Shown here: positions 7,850-53,648 of the stretch, one piece after another | Layout: every line of letters begins with the position of its first letter | How positions within the stretch are numbered: the stretch's first letter is position 1 | DNA from: Escherichia virus TH29 | Length of the DNA stretch: 53,648 nucleotides | Sequence record: MT446403.1 | Direction: 5' to 3' (one strand) | Made by a program: the position numbers and the translations under genes | Notes under the pieces: model-generated | Databases searched by the model: none | Seen by the model: only the letters and a program-made list of their open reading frames with translations | Told to the model about the DNA's origin: nothing

Positions 7850-8133
7850 TTTATTCTCCTAAGTTAAAAGAAAACTCCCGTCATAACGATTGTGGAGGTC
7901 TTGTGTTACCTTAATCCACCTTAAAGAATCAGGGAGTTACATATTAGTCTGTGTGTGCTGCTCTCGGTTACTTCCTAGTATTGCGAAGCTCTTGCATTCC
8001 CGCAAACCACACCTTTTGCACAGACCGTATGTGACACAACAAGTGCCGAAAACTACAATGATTAGCTTGGAGACATAATCTCTCTAAAATCTGTCACACA
8101 ATTTCAGCAGAATTTACAGAGATTTGGTCTTAT

Positions 8134-8149
8134 TCACATGCAACTAATG
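8134..8149 (-). promoter_or_regulatory. Conserved motif copy tcacatgCAACTAATGa (variant)
   Basis: Inside the 7.86-9.1 kb non-coding control region. Confidence 0.35.
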
Positions 8150-8342
8150 ATAAATGGACATGCTTAATTGCAACCAATTCATCTGCCAAATAGACGAATT
8201 TAGTCACAATCAAACATGCATCATTAATTACAGGTTTGCTCCTATCTTGGAATGTATTTGGCACATCAAGAAGTGGCGCAACAGGTACGGAAAACCGACC
8301 ATGTACAGCATAATAAAACTAATTAAATAAAGGGTTTTATCC

Positions 8343-8360
8343 CAATATTGTCACAATATT
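8343..8360. repeat. Tandem palindrome CAATATTG-tca-CAATATT, operator-like
   Basis: CAATATTG is self-complementary; the same 18-mer recurs at 8592-8609 with degenerate copies nearby and at 11383-11601; often followed by ACATGC. Confidence 0.5.
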
Positions 8361-8591
8361 TACATGCGATGATAAAGCCTTCGCTTGGCTGGAAGCCAGT
8401 ATTCATGCGGGTTGCAAGAATATTGGGTCAATACTGATATAGCTATTACATGCGAAATTGGCACAAATACTGTTACAAAATTAACATGCCGGATTGGTAG
8501 ACAATTGTATCTTCGAGGTGATTAGTCCTCTAACAATTCTGCCACATTCTAACATGCCAATTTGTAGCAATATTTACATGCCATACTATGA

Positions 8592-8609
8592 CAATATTGT
8601 CACAATATT
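8592..8609. repeat. Second exact copy of CAATATTG-tca-CAATATT
   Basis: Identical 18-mer to 8343-8360. Confidence 0.5.
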
Positions 8610-8983
8610 TGTTGCTCAAATTCGGGTGCGGCTACGAGACTAATCTCGATGCTTTGCTCCGACTCTTCTCTTCTTTCGAATTCTGATTGAAAGAAAGAAG
8701 CATGTCCAAAAGTTCCAGTCTTGCCAAAGTTATCTCCCGGCTTGTGGGTGGGCCTTGATAATAGGAGAATACAATATTGGAACAATTGGTCATGCTTGTA
8801 TTGAAGAACAGTTTCGAATGATAATCCTACTTCACACATGGTTGTTGGAGCTTTGTCTGGCCAAAGACAGGGAGTTCAATGATTGCCACATCATTACAAC
8901 ACTGTGTGTTTAGTTGACATGCTGAAATGTTTCTAGAATGATTTCAACATGACATGCGGAATACTTCTCCGTATTCTGTTACT

Positions 8984-9000
8984 TCACATCCAACTAATGT
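8984..9000 (-). promoter_or_regulatory. Conserved motif copy tcacatCCAACTAATGT
   Basis: Just downstream (minus sense) of the RNAP terminator and upstream of the repeat-rich region. Confidence 0.45.
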
Positions 9001-9062
9001 CGAATATTGAAACAATATTACATGCAGCAATATTGCTTGAATATTGGGAATTAAAGGATTTA

Positions 9063-9109
9063 ATTAATAAAGAATAAAGAAAGGGCCATCACCTTTCGAT
9101 GACAGCCCT
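9063..9109 (-). terminator. Rho-independent terminator after the RNA polymerase gene
   Basis: Hairpin AGGGC/GCCCT plus CATC/GATG at 9082-9109, followed on the minus strand by UUCUUUAUUCUUUAUU, directly after the stop at 9117-9119. Confidence 0.6.
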
Positions 9110-9116
9110 AGGTCTA

Positions 9117-11057
9117 TTACTGGCAGAAGTAGTAAGCGTGTTCGCTCATAAGCAGCTCTTCAGTAACAATGTTCTCGTGGTACATGTTGATGCCACCAAG
9201 TTGCTTAGACAGAGATTCAAACTGGTTATTATGAACAAAGATTTCAATATAAGCAGAACGAATAACTTCCATCATTTTAGGAGCATCAGCCAAGCAGCAA
9301 CGGAAACAATCGTGAATTGAAGTAAAGCCACGAAGACCAGCTTCTTTAGCTTTGACTGCAACAGTACGAGCAACCAATGCGTCAATACCTTGAATGTAGT
9401 TAACAACGAAGGTACGCTTGAATTCTTCTTTAGTTGGATTGGACTCACGAATGGTCCAAGGCTTATTCTCCTGAATCTGACCAAAGATGACACGAGTTTG
9501 ACTATCAACACGAATGCTGAATGCATCACAAACATCACGAGATGGGAAGCAAGGCTTCATTACAACTTGACCATCAGTGTGCTTATAGGTGATGTACTCT
9601 TTGTTGAGTTCAACACAACGAGCAAATGCAGCATCAGCAGCTTTCTCAATGAACATGTTAATCTTAGCACCCAATGCGTTATGGATTGCTTCTACACACA
9701 GTTCAGCAAATGCCTCAGCTTTCTCCATAGGAATCTGGAGCGCTTCTGTCATGTATGCAATGAAGTCAGAAGAACCAGTTAATGCAGCTTTACCACCACC
9801 ATATTGGATAGCCATGTATGGAGTTTTGATAAACTTACGACCAGCTTTCGGATTCAAGAATTCATCCATAATTTCAGCGGATGGTTTCATTGAAGAACGG
9901 TCTAATAACTTCAACAGTTCACGGAGAGATAACTGGTATGGGTCAGATGCTTTAGTCTCAGAATCAACCAGACCTGTAGCACGAGCCATTTCCATGTTAC
10001 CAGCAATGAATGCCAGATATTGAGTACCAGAACATTTAGCATCTAAGCCAAAGCCTACACGAGAATCACACTCACCTGTAGTCTCAAACTTGAACCAATC
10101 CAGAGCCAGACGAACATAAGTGAATGGCTTAGAAGGACGCTCACCTTTAGGCATGTTCAGCATACGAGCCAAAGAACCAGCAGGATTCTGTGCAACATAG
10201 GTTAAACGTTTTGCAGAAGTCCAGTCTCCACCAGCAATATCTTCCAGCTCAAGCATGAACATGTTGTATGCCAGAGTTGTTGAACCATCAGCATTAAACT
10301 TGCTCACAGTGTTCTCAACATTGTGGGAATACAGGCAACGAGCAAAGTCAGATGATTGTGGGTTAGGACCAGCACATGCTACATGATACAAACGACCACG
10401 GTTATCAGCAAAGTAGTCAGAGAACAGAGTGTCCTGACCAACCATTGCTACAGCATTGTTCCAAACATGGAGTTCAGTCTGGATTGCTTCTGGCATCTGT
10501 AAGCCACCAAATGTACGTTGTTCTAACATGGAAGAGATAACCCTAACCATTGTTGCATCAACGTGATATTCAGTATCTTGCAGGAATTCGATTGCAGCTT
10601 TCAGAGTTTTGGATGGCTTAACTTTGCCACCTTTAACGAAAGGCTTGCGACGAGATTCAGTTGTTACCTTCTCAGTGAATGGAACTGAGGTATCTTTGGT
10701 TGTAACCAGTTCAACCCATGCATCAGTCATCTGGAACGATTTGTCCTCGTTCATGGTGATGAAACCGAAGTGTTTAGCCAGACCAATCAGGTTGATAGCT
10801 GGGTCAACATAGTGCATTGACTTTAAGTCGTTGTTGTAACGGTTGGCATCAGCAATGGAAGCAGAAGCCAGTTCAACCATCGAGATAGCTGGAATAACGT
10901 CATCACGCGTGAAAGACGTCATCATCTTGAATATGGCTAAGGCAGCAATAGCACAAGTCTGAGGCTGCATATAGTTCTGCTTCTCTTTGGCACGGTATAC
11001 CAGAGCGGTGATAGCAGGGACAACAGATTTGATAGTTTGAGTAGTGATAGTAGTCAT
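9117..11057 (-). CDS. Single-subunit (T7-like) DNA-dependent RNA polymerase, compact form of about 646 aa
   Basis: Motifs align to T7 RNAP: DNRGRLYHV, LDAKCSGTQYLA (motif A), RKFIKTPYMAIQYGGG (motif B), IHDCFRCCLAD (motif C). Start set at MTTITTQ (ATG 11055-11057, GGAGA RBS), not the ORF-track TTG at 11144. Confidence 0.85.
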   Translation of the reverse strand: MTTITTQTIKSVVPAITALVYRAKEKQNYMQPQTCAIAALAIFKMMTSFTRDDVIPAISMVELASASIADANRYNNDLKSMHYVDPAINLIGLAKHFGFITMNEDKSFQMTDAWVELVTTKDTSVPFTEKVTTESRRKPFVKGGKVKPSKTLKAAIEFLQDTEYHVDATMVRVISSMLEQRTFGGLQMPEAIQTELHVWNNAVAMVGQDTLFSDYFADNRGRLYHVACAGPNPQSSDFARCLYSHNVENTVSKFNADGSTTLAYNMFMLELEDIAGGDWTSAKRLTYVAQNPAGSLARMLNMPKGERPSKPFTYVRLALDWFKFETTGECDSRVGFGLDAKCSGTQYLAFIAGNMEMARATGLVDSETKASDPYQLSLRELLKLLDRSSMKPSAEIMDEFLNPKAGRKFIKTPYMAIQYGGGKAALTGSSDFIAYMTEALQIPMEKAEAFAELCVEAIHNALGAKINMFIEKAADAAFARCVELNKEYITYKHTDGQVVMKPCFPSRDVCDAFSIRVDSQTRVIFGQIQENKPWTIRESNPTKEEFKRTFVVNYIQGIDALVARTVAVKAKEAGLRGFTSIHDCFRCCLADAPKMMEVIRSAYIEIFVHNNQFESLSKQLGGINMYHENIVTEELLMSEHAYYFCQ

Positions 11058-11124
11058 TTGTAAGTCTCCAAGATTGTGTATGATTTGAATGAAACGGATT
11101 ATAATAGCGTAGCCATTACACAAT

Positions 11125-11140
11125 TCACGTCCAACTAATA
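11125..11140 (-). promoter_or_regulatory. Conserved motif copy tcacgtCCAACTAATa
   Basis: About 70 bp upstream of the RNAP start codon. Confidence 0.45.
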
Positions 11141-11326
11141 TCACAAACCTGTGCCATTGTTAGCACAGCACAGGGACTTTGACCTTGACTCATAAGCGAA
11201 GCGCCTAACTTGGTGTTGTTTGAAAGCCGATAGGCTGCAGGAAAAAGTTGGGGCAGGGACCGTATTTAAGTCCGATAGGACGTTGGGCTTCCCCTCCCCG
11301 CCACCTCAAAAATAAAAATAATATCG

Positions 11327-11401
11327 CCACAATTCTAGTCTCGTCAATATCGTTACAATTCTAGTCTCATTAATATTGTAGCAATTCGAGTCTCATTAAT
11401 T
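11327..11401. repeat. Three tandem 24-25 bp direct repeats (iteron-like)
   Basis: ccacaattctagtctcgtcaatat / gttacaattctagtctcattaatat / gtagcaattcgagtctcattaatt, head to tail. Confidence 0.6.
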
Positions 11402-11452
11402 CCGTAACAATATTTAAATTAAAAAAAATTATATAAAAATTTTTTATAACAT
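11402..11452. promoter_or_regulatory. Strongly AT-rich tract next to the iterons, possible DNA unwinding element
   Basis: ccgtaacaatatttaaattaaaaaaaattatataaaaattttttataac is nearly pure A/T. Confidence 0.4.
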
Positions 11453-11717
11453 AGTCGGACTTCTGTTCGAACAAATTTCGGCTAGATACAGCTGACCGAT
11501 TGTGAACGAATCTATGTCTAGGTACAGTTGACCGACCATGTACCATTTGGTTTTGAATTTTACGCATTCCTAATATTACTCTTAATATTGTAGCAATATT
11601 GGGAATAAATAAATATTTAACTTACTTATTTTATTCTAGCTCAAAGAGAAACGACGCTAACGCATCGAATCTCTTCTCACATATTAACTGACAAACGTCA
11701 GCCTTCACCATATCCAA

Positions 11718-12836
11718 TCATAATTCAAATCCACCGAGTGCATTAGTATCAACTTCAGAGTCAATTTGCCCAACCAGGTAGGAACTAATCTCAGTCTCCT
11801 GTGGAGCAACCTGTACAGCATCCGAATTCAACCATGCATTAATCCACGGAATAGGATTCGTAGCATCCTTAAATGGAGCATCTAATCCAACTGCTTGCAT
11901 ACGAATATTCGTGATATATTCCACATATCCACACAGAATTTGCTTGTTTAAGCCTATCATTGAGCCATCTTTGAACAGATAATCGGCCCAATCTTTCTCT
12001 TGTTGAGCAGCATCTTCGAACAATTTCTGGCATTCTTCACGACATTCTTGAGCAATTTCGCCCATTTCTGGGTCATCTTTTCCACTCGCCAGAATATTCA
12101 ACATGTGCTGAGTTCCGGTCAAATGGAGTGCTTCATCTCGTGCAATCAGTCGAATAATCTTGGCATTTCCTTCCATTAGCTTACGTTCAGCGAAGGCAAA
12201 TGAGCAAGCAAAGCTAACATAGAAGCGAATTGCTTCCAGTGCGTTGATAGACATGAGGCATAAATAGAGCTTCTTCTTCAACTCACGAAGACTAATTTCA
12301 TGACCGACATGATTCCCTTCCCCAAACAACTGCCATAATGCAGTAAGTTGTTGGAGTTCGTCGTAATATTGGGAGATGCCAATTGCCCGTGCTTTGATAT
12401 GTTCGTTAGTTACGATTTCATCAAAGATTACGCTTGGGTCTGTAACGATGTTACGGATAATGTGAGTGTAAGAACGTGAATGGATAGTCTCGGAGAAGGA
12501 CCAAGTTTCAATCCAAGTTTCAAGCTCAGGAATGCTAACGATTGGAAGCAAAACTGTGTTAGGCCCACGTCCCTGAATGGAGTCCAGAAGGATTTGATAG
12601 CGCAAATTACTGGTGAAAATGTGCTGCTCATTTGGTGGGAGCTTCTGATAATCAATACGGTCTTGTGAAACATCCACCTCTTCTGGTCGCCAGAAGAATG
12701 ACAATTGTTTCTCAATCAACTTCTCGAATATGCCATACTTCTGCTGGTCATAGCGAGCAACGTTGACGTTCTGACCAAAGAACATTGGTTCTAATAGTTG
12801 GTTATTCTTGGTTTGTGAAAAGGTAGTGTAAGACAT
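11718..12836 (-). CDS. nrdB: Class Ia ribonucleotide reductase small subunit (NrdB), very close to enterobacterial NrdB
   Basis: 372 aa; N-terminus [22 protein letters not shown] and internal [29 protein letters not shown] are near-identical to E. coli NrdB as recalled from memory (roughly 80 percent, not computed). Confidence 0.9.
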
Positions 12837-35952: not shown

Positions 35953-37988
35953 GCCGAGTAGTTGGCACTTGGGCCGGAGAATTCGATTGCAACCATATCT
36001 GAAACGTTATCGACACAATCGTCGTGTCCAGTACCACTACCCAAAGAAGTGAATCCAAGTATTTCACGTCTAACGTGGTCAATGTGTTCATGACCAGCAG
36101 GGAAGAATATCCTCTTTTGGGAGAAATATGGGATTGCGTTAAGGAATCGAGTTACCTTGTCATTACCGTTAATGCCATCACGAGGCAGTGGTAAAACTCG
36201 GACACTCCCATCTCTAATAAATTGTTGGTTCAAGAACTGTCCAGCAGACTTATCTTCCATGTACAAAGCACGAGGAATGCAGCCTACATATTTCAAATCC
36301 AACTTATTGCATTTATTCCAGAAGTCGATAATAGCAGTCTTGAGTTCTGGAGTTTCAAACTTACCGAGCATGATATCTAAACAATAAACATCCCGCTCTT
36401 TAGTCACGCCCCAATGCTTAAGGACCGAATAGTCAGAATAAGACTTGGCAGTTGATGCCGTATCAGCAGTGATGAAACTTCTAACTATACGACTTCTGTC
36501 GAAAGCGTCTGGCTCATACTCTTGCCACCAGTCTTCTTTAACAAGGCCATGACCTTGAGCAGACGGGTCGCCAGCATACTGTGAGTTGTATGTGTATGGG
36601 TTGGACTCCTTCATTGCCTCCAAAGATTCTAAACTCTTACGTGAAGGCCACAATGCAGACTTCTCTTCTTTCCTGTTCAAATCATAGAGAATAGGGATAG
36701 CATGAGTGTAGTTCTGCTTCTTAATTAATTTGTCGTACCACTGAGCACTGCCAACACCTTTCTCAATAATCGCTGGGATATTGAGATAGTGGTATTTATC
36801 AGAGGAGCCACCACGGAGTATATAACCAACTAAATCTTGGTCATGAACTCGCTGCATGATGATAACCATCGGAGTACGTGAACACTTAATTTGGTTTCCA
36901 CGTGAATCTGTTATGCACCCATCATTGGCAAGACGGGACATAAAGGTGTTATCAAATCGGTCGTTGATTTCTGCTCGAACAGTGTCAGAGTAGGCATCCT
37001 TCGGTTTGATAACGTCATCCACCACAAAGCAACCGGAGTAGTTTGCGACAAGAAGTCCAGCACCTTTGCCAGTTAGCTTACCACCAGTAGGTACTGCGTG
37101 CATAACTCCAGCTTTGGTCGTACCCCAGCGTTCAAGTGAACGTTTGTTAGGGTCGATTCTCACCTTCGGGAATATGCGTTGGAACAGCGGGTCCAACATT
37201 ACTGCACGGATGTAGCCACTAGATTCCAATACAACGTCTTCTGCATAGGAGGTGATGATGTTGTGGCTTGATTCATTGTGGCAGAATGAATACAGCGGCA
37301 ATGCAATACTCATAAGCTGAGTTTTGGAGTGTCGTGGTGGAATGGTGACAATTAGTCGGTCAATCTCACCGTCAACAACTTTCTGCCCTACTTTGAATAT
37401 TACATCGTGAAAGTCTTGAGACTGGAATGGGAATCCCATCTGAATGTGGAACTGCCATTTACCAAATGCCTCAAAACTCTTCATCAAAATTTTACGGACT
37501 TGTTCTGCAACCTTGGCTGGGATTACAGTTGGGTCAACGTTATGCGGGTCATAAAGGATTTTATCAACAAGCTCTTGTGTATTGTCGTGTTCAGAAGTTG
37601 GCTCTTCTAAAGTCGAACCAGCTACACGGTCTGTTACACCAGCTTGGATTCCTTTCTTCAACTCGTCGGCATACGCAGTTGAATCTTTCTTATCGCCAGA
37701 GCGAAGGCGCTCAAGTTGTGCTCGGAAAACGGAACGCAATACAGCATCGTTTTCAAGACCCTGGCCTTCTAACTCTGCTTGAATTTGTTCTTCATAGCTG
37801 TCAACTATCGCAGTATTTTCTGAAATATATCGACGGAGCAATGGCAAAGATAGAATGCAGAATCTTTCTCTTGAGACTTTTAATACGTCACCGTAGTGTT
37901 TGGCAAGATACGAGGCTACTGTATCATTAAACTCCGGTCCGAGGTCATCAGTCTTTGACATTGATTCGTTCTCTTTGGTTTTAATCAC
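35943..37988 (-). CDS. Terminase large subunit
   Basis: 681 aa; N-terminal ATPase region (VTIPPRHSKTQL, VVDDVIKPKD) and C-terminal nuclease-like acidic motifs (GHDDCVDNVSD). Confidence 0.8.
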   Translation of the reverse strand: MIKTKENESMSKTDDLGPEFNDTVASYLAKHYGDVLKVSRERFCILSLPLLRRYISENTAIVDSYEEQIQAELEGQGLENDAVLRSVFRAQLERLRSGDKKDSTAYADELKKGIQAGVTDRVAGSTLEEPTSEHDNTQELVDKILYDPHNVDPTVIPAKVAEQVRKILMKSFEAFGKWQFHIQMGFPFQSQDFHDVIFKVGQKVVDGEIDRLIVTIPPRHSKTQLMSIALPLYSFCHNESSHNIITSYAEDVVLESSGYIRAVMLDPLFQRIFPKVRIDPNKRSLERWGTTKAGVMHAVPTGGKLTGKGAGLLVANYSGCFVVDDVIKPKDAYSDTVRAEINDRFDNTFMSRLANDGCITDSRGNQIKCSRTPMVIIMQRVHDQDLVGYILRGGSSDKYHYLNIPAIIEKGVGSAQWYDKLIKKQNYTHAIPILYDLNRKEEKSALWPSRKSLESLEAMKESNPYTYNSQYAGDPSAQGHGLVKEDWWQEYEPDAFDRSRIVRSFITADTASTAKSYSDYSVLKHWGVTKERDVYCLDIMLGKFETPELKTAIIDFWNKCNKLDLKYVGCIPRALYMEDKSAGQFLNQQFIRDGSVRVLPLPRDGINGNDKVTRFLNAIPYFSQKRIFFPAGHEHIDHVRREILGFTSLGSGTGHDDCVDNVSDMVAIEFSGPSANYSAWM

Positions 37989-38166
37989 AATCCACTAATG
38001 GCGGAGTTTGCACGGGATTGATGCGAATGATATTGCCCAAACTAGAATCAGCTTTTAAAATGAGCCGATTTAGTGGCATGAATGAATCACAGATAGGACA
38101 TTGTTGGACGATGAAATCATCCTCTGCCACTTCGTAATGGCAGTTACTACATTGAATTGTGCGCAT
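37981..38166 (-). CDS. Zinc-ribbon protein
   Basis: 61 aa with CSNCHY...CPICD Cys pairs; directly upstream of the terminase gene. Confidence 0.5.
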   Translation of the reverse strand: MRTIQCSNCHYEVAEDDFIVQQCPICDSFMPLNRLILKADSSLGNIIRINPVQTPPLVDCD

Positions 38167-52285: not shown

Positions 52286-52923
52286 AGGAACTCTCCAATT
52301 TTCGATTCGATGTTTGTGACGCTTCTCTCATCTTTTGGCCTTGTGGAAACAGCCACAGGGTAGCGCAGGAAGCCCGATTTCCGGGCCGTAGCCTACCGTT
52401 TGTGTCAATTCTGGATAACTGCATTGGCGAAGGGTTACTCCCGTTAGGGTGCGATACGCTAATCACATGAGTGTCGTCGCCTTACGGCTCAGGCGTGTCA
52501 CAGAGGCTTTGCAACCCTTCCCAATACATTCACCCAAATACCAGCTTTGGCGTAGCTGGTGGCTCTGTTTTGTGCGGATTATGCCACTCTAAGCCCTGTT
52601 TGTCCGACTTCCTCGGAGCACCAGCGGCTTGTGGCACAAACCTATTTTAGAATGACTAACATAAGCATGAGGCATAACCCTCTAATTATTCAGCCCTAAC
52701 AGCTTGCTTATTCAGTACCAATTCAACCCAATACATACACAACTATATACAATAGCGAACTATCTGCGAAAACTATCCGGCCCTATGGCCTAAGTTAAAG
52801 TTAATAGTGTGTGATGGAAACATTCCATCGAAAATAACTTTGCAGAATGAGTCGAACATTCTCACACGTCTAGCGGCCGCAACGGTCTACCGAGTTACAA
52901 AGTTATTATCTGATGTTGTTTCT

Positions 52924-53648
52924 TCAATTCCAACTAATGTCGAATACTCTTCTTGCAAACAGGACAAGTGATGAATCTGTATGCAAAGTATCCTCGGTCA
53001 TTCTTTCCTGTGTACATCTTTAAGTCAGAGAACACGTAAGATATTGCAGAGAAACATACCCACACTGGCGTGTGAATGTTACGTTATCCTTTTCCAAAAC
53101 TTTTATCATTTCAATTCCAACTAATGTTTCAGAATTATTCCAATATTCCAAACAAAAAGAATAATAAGAATAAATTAAAAATAAATGAAGAAAGTTCTTG
53201 ACACCCATTTGGCGATAGGTGTATAATGCCTTTCTTCCCTAAGAGGTCAGAATCAAATCCCACTAATGTTTCAGACGAAGTGCCGAAGGCGAATCCTCTC
53301 CCAAACCCGCTTGGAACAAGATGCCTCCGGCCTGGAACTATACTGCTTTCCAATCTGAATCAAACAGTTCCTTTGGTCTTGAATAAATTATCGAATTAAT
53401 TCCCAAGAAAGTGTGATTTCCATACTTCTTAACTTCCTGGTAAGCAAATCCATCTACCCAATTACCGCAGTGGGTTTTAATCTTTGTAGCAAACAGAATT
53501 CGGTAGTAGTGACCACGTGGCTGGTGGAAGAGAATATCTTCTGGCTTGATTGAGTTGATATTTAAATCAGACATTTAAGAACAATACCCCTTCGGAGAAG
53601 ATGTAGTCACTGCCGTAATCTTTGGTGATTGCATCCCAATCAATATAT
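52924..53648. repeat. Right copy of direct terminal repeat (identical to 1-725)
   Basis: Exact repeat of the left end, including the three motif copies, the sigma70 promoter (53198-53227) and the 78-aa ORF (53338-53574). Confidence 0.9.

Follow-up and report, generated by a model that had tools for sequence, protein, structure and literature searches.

A short tandem-repeat array beside an A/T tract, set between nrdB and the gene for the phage RNA polymerase (RNAP), raises the question of what such a locus does in a coliphage genome: does it start replication, mark the site at which genome ends are made, or control early transcription? A first-pass annotation of Escherichia virus TH29 (MT446403.1) had proposed a candidate replication origin. 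We analyzed the locus within the whole 53,648-nucleotide stretch of DNA (the window) and in related phages, and we describe here its anatomy and conservation, its position relative to the mapped termini of relatives, the distribution of its dyads and the variation in its copy number. The spacer that holds the array fits best as a junction of the terminal repeat combined with an early control region, in a phage of the Chaseviridae.

The spacer between nrdB and the RNAP gene

The window derives from a Chaseviridae (Carltongylesvirus-like) coliphage with every gene on the minus strand, and the ~2 kb around the array are 84-93% identical to phiEcoM-GJ1-type phages (Carltongylesvirus and allies). 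Positions 1-725 recur exactly at 52924-53648, and the genome measures 52.9 kb; this 725-bp overlap looks like an assembly overlap, distinct from a biological terminal repeat. The RNAP gene (11057..9117, minus strand) encodes a T7-type single-subunit RNA polymerase. Its ATG at 11057 and the nrdB stop codon at 11718-11720 bound a spacer of 660 bp (11058-11717), which had been placed correctly between the two genes in the first-pass annotation but sized at only ~570 bp. Apart from the repeats, terminal hairpins and promoter-like sites treated below, the spacer contains the following elements:

11642..11667, minus strand: terminator-like hairpin with a T-rich tail, CGATGCGTTAGCGTCG TTTCTCTTTG, directly after nrdB (terminator scan)
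11282..11319, minus strand: T-rich, then G-rich block, ATTTTTATTTTTGAGGTGGCGGGGAGGGGAAGCCCAAC (cross-genus alignment)
11148..11174, minus strand: leader hairpin with G-U pairs, CCTGTGCTGT GCTAACA ATGGCACAGG followed by TTTGTGATAT, resembling a terminator or processing site

The 20-nt bin over the nrdB terminator-like hairpin (11649-11668) is 100% conserved in 14 relatives, and the leader hairpin, which lies just upstream of the phage promoter, is partly conserved. A structured RNA or tRNA was rejected as an explanation of the spacer, since no tRNA was found in the window, Rfam returned no match in 10900-11900 even at E<=1, and the 181-nt leader folds no better than its shuffles (z = -1.1). We also rejected as a gene the 65-aa ORF at 11370..11567 (minus strand), the only ORF spanning the array region, whose frame is not conserved and whose frame and length (8-66 aa) shift among 15 relatives. 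The same ORF is annotated as a 'hypothetical protein' in some relatives.

The predicted terminal-repeat boundary and its hairpins

Chaseviridae have linear, non-permuted DNA with terminal redundancy in the form of ~3-kb repeats (PMC12842549) that start just upstream of the RNAP gene (PMC12842549, PMC8762354, PMC6753284, PMC6872899). To place the genome ends in the window, we transferred the published or deposited ends of relatives onto it by homology, reading the coding strand. The direct terminal repeat (DTR) of these relatives spans 2.3-3.2 kb and carries the RNAP gene. The mapped left ends of five phages from five genera all fall at window positions 11269-11275, inside a single 12-nt element:

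4HA13 and Mangalitsa, PhageTerm: left end between 11270 and 11269, at the junction of GTCCTATCGGAC and TTAAATACGG (coding strand)
Y2 and PM1, both repeat copies present in the record: left end between 11273 and 11272, at the junction of ...TATCG and G... (coding strand)
Myduc, PhageTerm: left end between 11275 and 11274, at the junction of ...CTCCCTAT and CGGGAG... (coding strand)
8665..11269, minus strand: predicted DTR of this phage, 2605 bp, by homology, with the right end taken from the Mangalitsa PhageTerm DTR
11270..11281, minus strand: hairpin (dyad) 1, GTCC-TATC-GGAC, where the DTR left ends map; it holds the second 'ccgatagg' by position
11225..11236, minus strand: hairpin (dyad) 2, AGCC-TATC-GGCT, inside the DTR; it holds the first 'ccgatagg' by position

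The exception was PYps23T, for which the published 2339-bp DTR starts between 11130 and 11129, 140 bp off and within the promoter repeat. Because each boundary directly follows ATTAGTTGGA within one of two phage promoter copies, this assignment is doubtful; the boundary was possibly displaced by the promoter repeat, and we did not treat it as a consensus terminus.

The two 'ccgatagg' copies had been noted earlier, at about 11229 and 11273, and are indeed exact (11227-11234 and 11272-11279). The bare 8-mer pair is not significant alone, a comparable pair arising in 8 of 100 shuffles. Both hairpins have the form NNN-CC-TATC-GG-N'N'N' and are conserved across at least six genera, with hairpin 2 located 42-46 bp downstream of hairpin 1 at the eight junctions measured. 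Within the central spacer, 100% conservation in 14 close relatives is reached by the bin 11269-11288 alone; the block in which it lies is likewise the sole spacer block that can be recognised out to Erwinia and Pectobacterium phages and one phage labelled Aeromonas. Among seven representative hairpin instances from four phages, the inner two C-G pairs never change, nor do three of the four loop bases; the second loop base is G in one Y2 copy. The next two pairs outward appear as A-U, G-C, C-G or U-A, and every one of their cells is paired. Across the stem as a whole, 91% of cells are paired and 10 cells have changed on both sides, a result that none of 500 shuffles reached; controls in which the stem was slid gave 17-49% pairing. 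Hairpin 1 is the predicted end site and hairpin 2 lies inside the predicted repeat.

Along with hairpin 2, the predicted DTR contains the phage promoter, the RNAP gene and ~450 bp of non-coding early region. With the left ends at 11269-11275, the 26-bp array lies outside the DTR, 50-145 bp from its predicted left end, and would therefore be present as a single copy in virion DNA, before the right-hand copy of the RNAP gene. The anatomy that had been read as an origin signature holds, but the reading had missed the dominant feature of the locus, the predicted DTR boundary, a physical genome end. The T-rich/G-rich block at 11282..11319 has a -10-like element on one side and the terminus hairpin on the other. 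Each genus compared has a T-run and then a G-rich stretch at the matching place, preceded by a -10-like element ~45-50 nt before the terminus.

The 26-bp array and the dyad family

Upstream of the boundary, the spacer holds a series of repeated and symmetric elements:

11320..11414, minus strand: array with a 26-bp period, three units complete and a fourth partial (TRF, repeat search)
11402..11452, no strand: A/T tract with a 40/40 A/T core at 11410-11449 (composition, nearest-neighbour dG)
11482..11535, minus strand: the tacagctgaccga pair, two copies of TCGGTCA(A/G)CTGTA(C/T)CTAG, 36 bp apart (repeat search)
11584..11600, no strand: perfect, stand-alone 17-bp dyad AATATTG-TAG-CAATATT, containing CAATATTG (exact match)

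TRF reported the array at 11320-11411 (period 26, 3.5 copies, 81% matches, score 107), by far the top array in the window. Three in-register 26-mers start at 11320, 11346 and 11372, and a partial fourth unit occupies 11398-11414. The first-pass annotation had described three head-to-tail repeats of 24-25 bp at 11327-11401; the tandem repeat is real, but its period is 26 bp and its start had been set 7 nt late. Each unit comprises a 17-mer, AATATyG-N3-CAATTCn, and a 9-bp spacer, AGTCTCrTy. All 16 of the 16 array-bearing relatives have two to four units in exact 26-bp phase. Repeat number, the conservation of which had been proposed as a check, is variable, ranging from two to four units among near-identical phages. 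Carltongylesvirus-like genomes always carry at least two units, Faunus (RNAP ~78% identical) has two, and the units of phiA050 carry a near-perfect dyad.

The 17-mer is a three-mismatch copy of the dyad AATATTG-N3-CAATATT, matching 11 of the 14 specified positions. This match counts as about one event, because the four units are copies of each other, and we estimate p ~0.01 for a dyad match in the 92-bp stretch. Dyads with at most one mismatch number six in the genome, all of them within 8344-11600 (8344-9045 and 11584), and those with at most three mismatches number 21, against 4.8 expected. In the first 50 kb of PYps23T, dyads with at most one mismatch are likewise confined to the early region. 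The perfect dyad at 11584..11600 is 100% conserved in all Carltongylesvirus-like relatives; at the equivalent position the dyad is perfect in Y2, Faunus and L029 and near-perfect in 4HA13, and PM1 has one near its array. The palindrome CAATATTG, copies of which had been noted before, occurs once exactly in the region (11594-11601) and nine times genome-wide, against 1.6 expected. Sites at dispersed places are near-perfect dyads, whereas those of the array are degenerate, with three mismatches.

The second reported pair of short elements, tacagctgaccga at about 11486 and 11522, was recovered as two 18-mers (11482-11499 and 11518-11535) that differ at two positions and are spaced 36 bp apart, with a chance expectation of 0.03. 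The same pair can be written 'tacag(c/t)tgaccga'. BSBP01 and TH24 have one copy of the element, and GGTCGGTCAAyTGT also occurs in 4HA13, Y2, PM1, L029 and phiA050.

The array is the least conserved part of the spacer, owing to changes in copy number. In addition to the variation from two to four units, GJ1 has a 21-bp insertion in the array, and EcoM1 and MLP1 have array rearrangements. Such instability would suit functionless repetition, in which slippage or unequal recombination multiplied a 26-bp segment bearing one dyad and one -10-like element, and in which nothing but the DTR-proximal copy and the terminus block matters. Consistent with this, 4HA13, the mapped terminus of which is the same as that of the others, keeps only one dyad-like element at the place of the array. 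However, the unit sequences are nearly constant from unit to unit, out to Faunus and phiA050, the 26-bp phase is exact in every relative, and at least two units are always retained in Carltongylesvirus-like genomes. We regard a functionless array as quite unlikely.

The closeness of the array to the terminus, from which it ends 50 nt away, brings packaging into consideration. The units and a bendable A/T tract could form a cosB- or pacB-like recognition site on which the small terminase assembles next to a cut in hairpin 1. In other genera this place is taken by different repeats, tandem or clustered: approximately three 25-bp units in Myduc, three units in PM1 and six copies of GATTCG in Y2. 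In Myduc and Y2 the early region holds no further copies of the junction repeats, a confinement that would be expected of a function tied to the junction, for instance packaging or the initiation of replication. An architecture that stays constant while its sequence differs between genera is what a terminase and its site typically show. At the other end of the repeat, in 4HA13, Mangalitsa, PM1 and Y2, the first dyad lies 46-74 nt past the mapped DTR right end, mirroring the 50 nt between array and left end in this phage; as these four positions are homologous, they amount to one observation. The layout also resembles lambda cos (cosN, R-sites and the IHF bend) and T3/T7 pacB in having repeats and bendable DNA <150 bp from a sequence-specific end-generating site.

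Sabourvirus argues against this reading. 4HA13, with its PhageTerm-mapped end, and the Sabourvirus-like contigs L029 and L030 have neither the array nor a pure A/T tract, yet they keep both hairpins with the same hairpin sequence, and the proteins encoded next to their terminases share 69-87% identity with those of this phage. In addition, the unit number varies from two to four among phages with near-identical terminases, and the dyad is also found at many places in the early region where no end lies. Unlike at lambda cos, the product here is a long direct repeat and not cohesive ends, the predicted cut falls at a covarying hairpin, and the repeats are dispensable in Sabourvirus. Our search identified no small terminase subunit; the two candidates, a 61-aa zinc-ribbon protein and a 109-aa protein upstream of the large terminase, have no family assignment. 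A co-variation test with the small terminase was uninformative, since the divergence of both candidates across genera tracks that of the RNAP. We consider a packaging role for the array fairly unlikely.

Promoter-like sites and candidate functions of the array

We scanned the locus for host-type (sigma70) promoters and for phage-RNAP promoters, taking as the phage consensus the annotated promoters of phiEcoM-GJ1:

11318..11347, minus strand: sigma70-like site in the DTR-proximal unit, TTGACG-18-TATTAT (or TTGACG-16-GATATT), matching at 10 of 12 positions
11585 to 11557, minus strand: weak sigma70-like site, TTAAGA-17-TAAAAT, matching at 9 of 12 positions, overlapping the perfect dyad and reading to the A/T tract
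11124..11140, minus strand: phage-RNAP promoter-like site TATTAGTTGGACGTGAA, 66 nt upstream of the RNAP ATG

The site at 11318..11347 points toward the RNAP gene, 260 nt upstream of its ATG. Sites matching at least 10 of 12 positions on the coding strand number four genome-wide, and this is the only one upstream of the RNAP gene; in the 212 bp from the predicted left end to the RNAP ATG, the sigma70 scan found no comparable site. In the record of phiEcoM-GJ1, the depositors annotated the homologous site as a putative host promoter. Since it is outside the predicted DTR, the site would stand ahead of the right-end RNAP gene copy alone, or ahead of both once concatemers have formed. Every unit of the array, viewed on the coding strand, forms a -35/-10-like module. 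Several relatives have the weaker -35 element TTAACG, the -35 hexamers of the inner units are poor, and a simple sigma70 scan detected no site at the equivalent place in Y2, PM1 or 4HA13. The part of each unit that would correspond to the promoter spacer (GAGACTnGAATTG) is kept from unit to unit and in relatives as distant as Faunus and phiA050. Conservation of this part is needless for a bare promoter and points to protein binding; it also lends some weight to the packaging and origin readings.

Phage-promoter-like sites are 10 in number (12 hits, two of them duplicated in the terminal overlap), against 0.28 expected, and all are on the coding strand; none lies upstream of the A/T tract. According to the ICTV profile, promoters of Chaseviridae have not yet been identified. 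A repeat search tied the phage promoter region (11119-11142) to the array units at 71%. The idea that the units are degenerate phage-RNAP promoters was rejected as chance, as the shared bases lie in the flanks and the core matches at only 8-10 of 17 positions.

Our preferred, still tentative reading, for which we see a reasonable though far from assured case, is that the array may be an accessory host-promoter/operator array in front of the RNAP gene. Along the coding strand, the order of elements runs from the putative nrdB terminator through the perfect dyad, two GGTCGGTCAACTGT-type elements, the A/T tract and the 26-bp array, and continues with the T-rich/G-rich block, hairpin 1 (the predicted start of a ~2.6-kb DTR), hairpin 2, the leader hairpin, the putative phage-RNAP promoter and the RNAP gene. 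An early promoter module for the host RNAP (sigma70), duplicated in tandem, is the most likely source of the 26-bp units, each overlapped by a putative protein-binding site composed of a degenerate early-region dyad and the conserved spacer. The A/T tract could act as upstream DNA, either UP-like or bendable. A transcript driven by the DTR-proximal unit would begin near 11311 and run across the DTR boundary as far as the RNAP gene. The promoter activity of the array and the role of the A/T tract as upstream DNA are what we infer from these sequence features. Four dyad-like units at 26-bp spacing do overlap promoter-like hexamers, the arrangement expected of an operator array, and the alternative wording of the first-pass annotation, a 'multi-site regulator binding region', fits these findings.

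This early promoter/operator reading has parallels in known phages. At the T7 left end, the host promoters A1-A3 precede gene 1 and are ~125 bp apart. Here too, a T7-type RNAP gene comes first after the terminal repeat boundary, tandem host-type sites lie upstream, a phage promoter and a hairpin occur in the leader, and short repeat arrays flank the terminal repeat. Unlike in T7, the ~2.6-kb repeat contains the RNAP gene, the array is outside the repeat and the virion is that of a myovirus; with a spacing of 26 bp, moreover, the units would overlap as RNAP binding sites. Lambda OR and OL similarly have three to four 17-bp dyad-like sites at ~25-bp spacing that overlap a promoter, with the dyad recurring at several early sites. 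In contrast to lambda, the present phage is virulent and has no identified repressor gene, and it is the array sites that are degenerate and the dispersed ones that are near perfect. A dyad-binding protein, in its existence as in its identity, is likewise inferred; PHROGs and Pfam searches with 18 small proteins found no HTH or other DNA-binding family, and the early small proteins matched families of unknown function only.

The A/T tract had been described as ~50 bp of nearly pure A/T at 11402-11452, and composition bears this out (46 of 51 positions). Its core, 11410-11449, is the most A/T-rich 40-mer of the 52.9-kb genome and coincides with the least stable 60-mer by nearest-neighbour dG. 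Homopolymer runs vary in length among relatives, reaching T16 in L023; the other genera have no comparably pure A/T tract, and 4HA13 has none near the junction. If the locus were a replication origin, an initiator would bind the dyad repeats next to an A/T tract that unwinds, or, as in T7 or T4, transcription from an upstream promoter would run into the tract and prime synthesis. The iterons of lambda are dyad-symmetric and flank an A/T-rich stretch, and the array resembles lambda ori and iteron plasmids in placing dyad-containing tandem repeats by a ~40-bp A/T-rich stretch. Its 3.5 regular units provide at least three in-phase direct repeats by the least stable DNA of the genome, although the unit is longer than typical iterons, and the 40/40 core has the character of an unwinding element. 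The weak sigma70-like site at 11585 to 11557 reads toward the A/T tract, and one T7-type primase site (TGGTC) is present at 11538.

Set against an origin, the full record of a close relative has a T7-type replisome and no annotated initiator, and PHROGs and Pfam returned no initiator or DNA-binding family among the early small proteins. The spacer (11058-11717) contains neither DnaA boxes nor IHF consensus sites, no phage-RNAP promoter lies upstream of the A/T tract, and the dyad is dispersed over the early region, beyond a single locus. Further departures from lambda ori and iteron plasmids are that the array lies outside genes, lacks host-factor boxes, varies in repeat number and is absent from a sister genus; array and pure A/T tract are missing from Sabourvirus and are not conserved across genera. 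The phage shares with the T7 primary origin (phi1.1A/B and the A/T region after gene 1) its T7-like replisome genes and A/T tracts by promoters, but no phage promoter precedes the A/T tract here. That layout is found at 187-345 and after the RNAP gene, so that by T7 synteny the promoter-plus-A/T stretches at 9080-8100 and 187-345 are at least as good candidates. GC skew is monotonic without an inflection and uninformative, and our literature search found no paper reporting an origin for, or the replication of, Chaseviridae. The earlier observation of repeats next to the most meltable DNA of the genome stands, but the origin headline finds no independent support, and we consider an origin here unlikely.

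The way in which long exact terminal repeats are cut and duplicated is not well understood, and the dyad clusters and A/T tract could conceivably belong to the machinery that makes the repeat, a reading we hold to be improbable. One protein bound at both dyad clusters would then position the two end-generating cuts. Alternatively, the protein would fire or block local replication from the A/T tract, duplicating the 2.6-kb RNAP-bearing segment at the concatemer junction. The left cut would be made in the stem-covarying hairpin, ~40 nt into the early transcript. If this were true, transcription, replication and packaging would be coupled at one site.

Returning to the early promoter/operator array, the variation from two to four units and the existence of Sabourvirus without an array are easier to square with an accessory element than with a pac site or origin that the phage cannot do without. 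Both the terminal repeat and the putative promoter had been recorded before; for the end-site hairpins with their covarying stems, the dyad family of the early region and the modular 26-bp units, we found no description in the literature searched. The spacer bears on annotation practice as well, in that 'hypothetical proteins' called across it are not conserved in frame and several phage records open at non-physical positions. Within 450 bp, it brings together end-site hairpins, a host-type promoter candidate, a family-wide dyad and the most meltable DNA of the genome, and these candidates together make it the obvious fragment for start mapping, end mapping, and ori and pac assays.

Region behind the RNAP gene and the PYps23T terminal repeat

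The minus strand holds no convincing open reading frame over the ~1.25 kb past the stop codon of the RNAP gene (7860-9117), and the right end predicted for the terminal repeat, 8665, lies inside this ORF-poor stretch. About 13 GCATG(T) motifs occur here on the minus strand, often with the 17-bp dyad AATATTG-N3-CAATATT directly behind the motif. The following elements were predicted after the RNAP gene.

9109->9082, minus strand: strong terminator (predicted) after the RNAP gene
8999->8983, minus strand: phage promoter (predicted) within 7860-9117
8149->8133, minus strand: phage promoter (predicted) within 7860-9117

In Yersinia phage PYps23T (MW147598), the published 2339-bp terminal repeat has its two edges directly behind ATTAGTTGGA, one in each of two phage promoter copies, and the boundary lies 140 bp from the end position common to five other genera. 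This boundary is either an artefact of the promoter repeat or a different end.

Contig-end overlap and a candidate alternative origin position

The contig ends overlap exactly over 725 bp (1-725 and 52924-53648), far from the predicted biological terminal repeat, 11269..8665. One edge of this overlap, 52924, lies within a phage-promoter-like site, 52939->52923.

187-345 (= 53110-53268) and 52923-52939, coding strand: three phage-promoter-like sites within 350 bp
213-263: A/T-rich short repeats between these sites, ranking second in the genome for A/T richness

Together, these promoter-like sites and A/T-rich repeats resemble the primary origin of T7, which comprises phi1.1A/B plus A/T sequence. 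By this analogy, 187-345 with 52923-52939 is a candidate alternative position for the replication origin.

Annotation and deposition of relatives' records

Many linear records of relatives, including TH23, FXie-2024a, TH53, TH25, PO103-1 and SKA49, start or stop within the interval corresponding to 11177-11389, which lies in or near the array of 26-bp units (11320-11414) and the A/T tract (11402-11452), not at the mapped terminus (11269-11275). Either the repeat or the coverage step probably broke the assemblies at these points. Several GenBank records, including those we number L002, L003 (PYps23T), L006, L009 and L013, annotate small 'hypothetical protein' genes across the nrdB-RNAP spacer, at 11370-11567 on the minus strand; these are probably not genes, because neither frame nor length, which varies from 8 to 66 aa among relatives, is conserved. 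PP952070, 'Staphylococcus phage Pel53', is labelled as a Staphylococcus hyicus phage; at 92% identity to TH29, an enterobacterial Chaseviridae genome, its host label looks doubtful.

Zinc-ribbon protein and GATC content

The gene of a small protein directly precedes that of the large terminase.

37981-38166, minus strand: 61-aa double-CxxC zinc-ribbon protein

Its match to the Spt4/RpoE2 zinc finger is weak and sub-threshold, and relatives' annotations differ: it appears as 'RNA polymerase subunit', as 'hypA' or as a portion of the terminase. This protein could be a candidate for a small terminase subunit or for a regulator. Lastly, the unique part of the sequence (1-52923, 52.9 kb) contains a single GATC against ~200 expected, an extreme avoidance of this Dam/MboI-type site across the TH29 genome.
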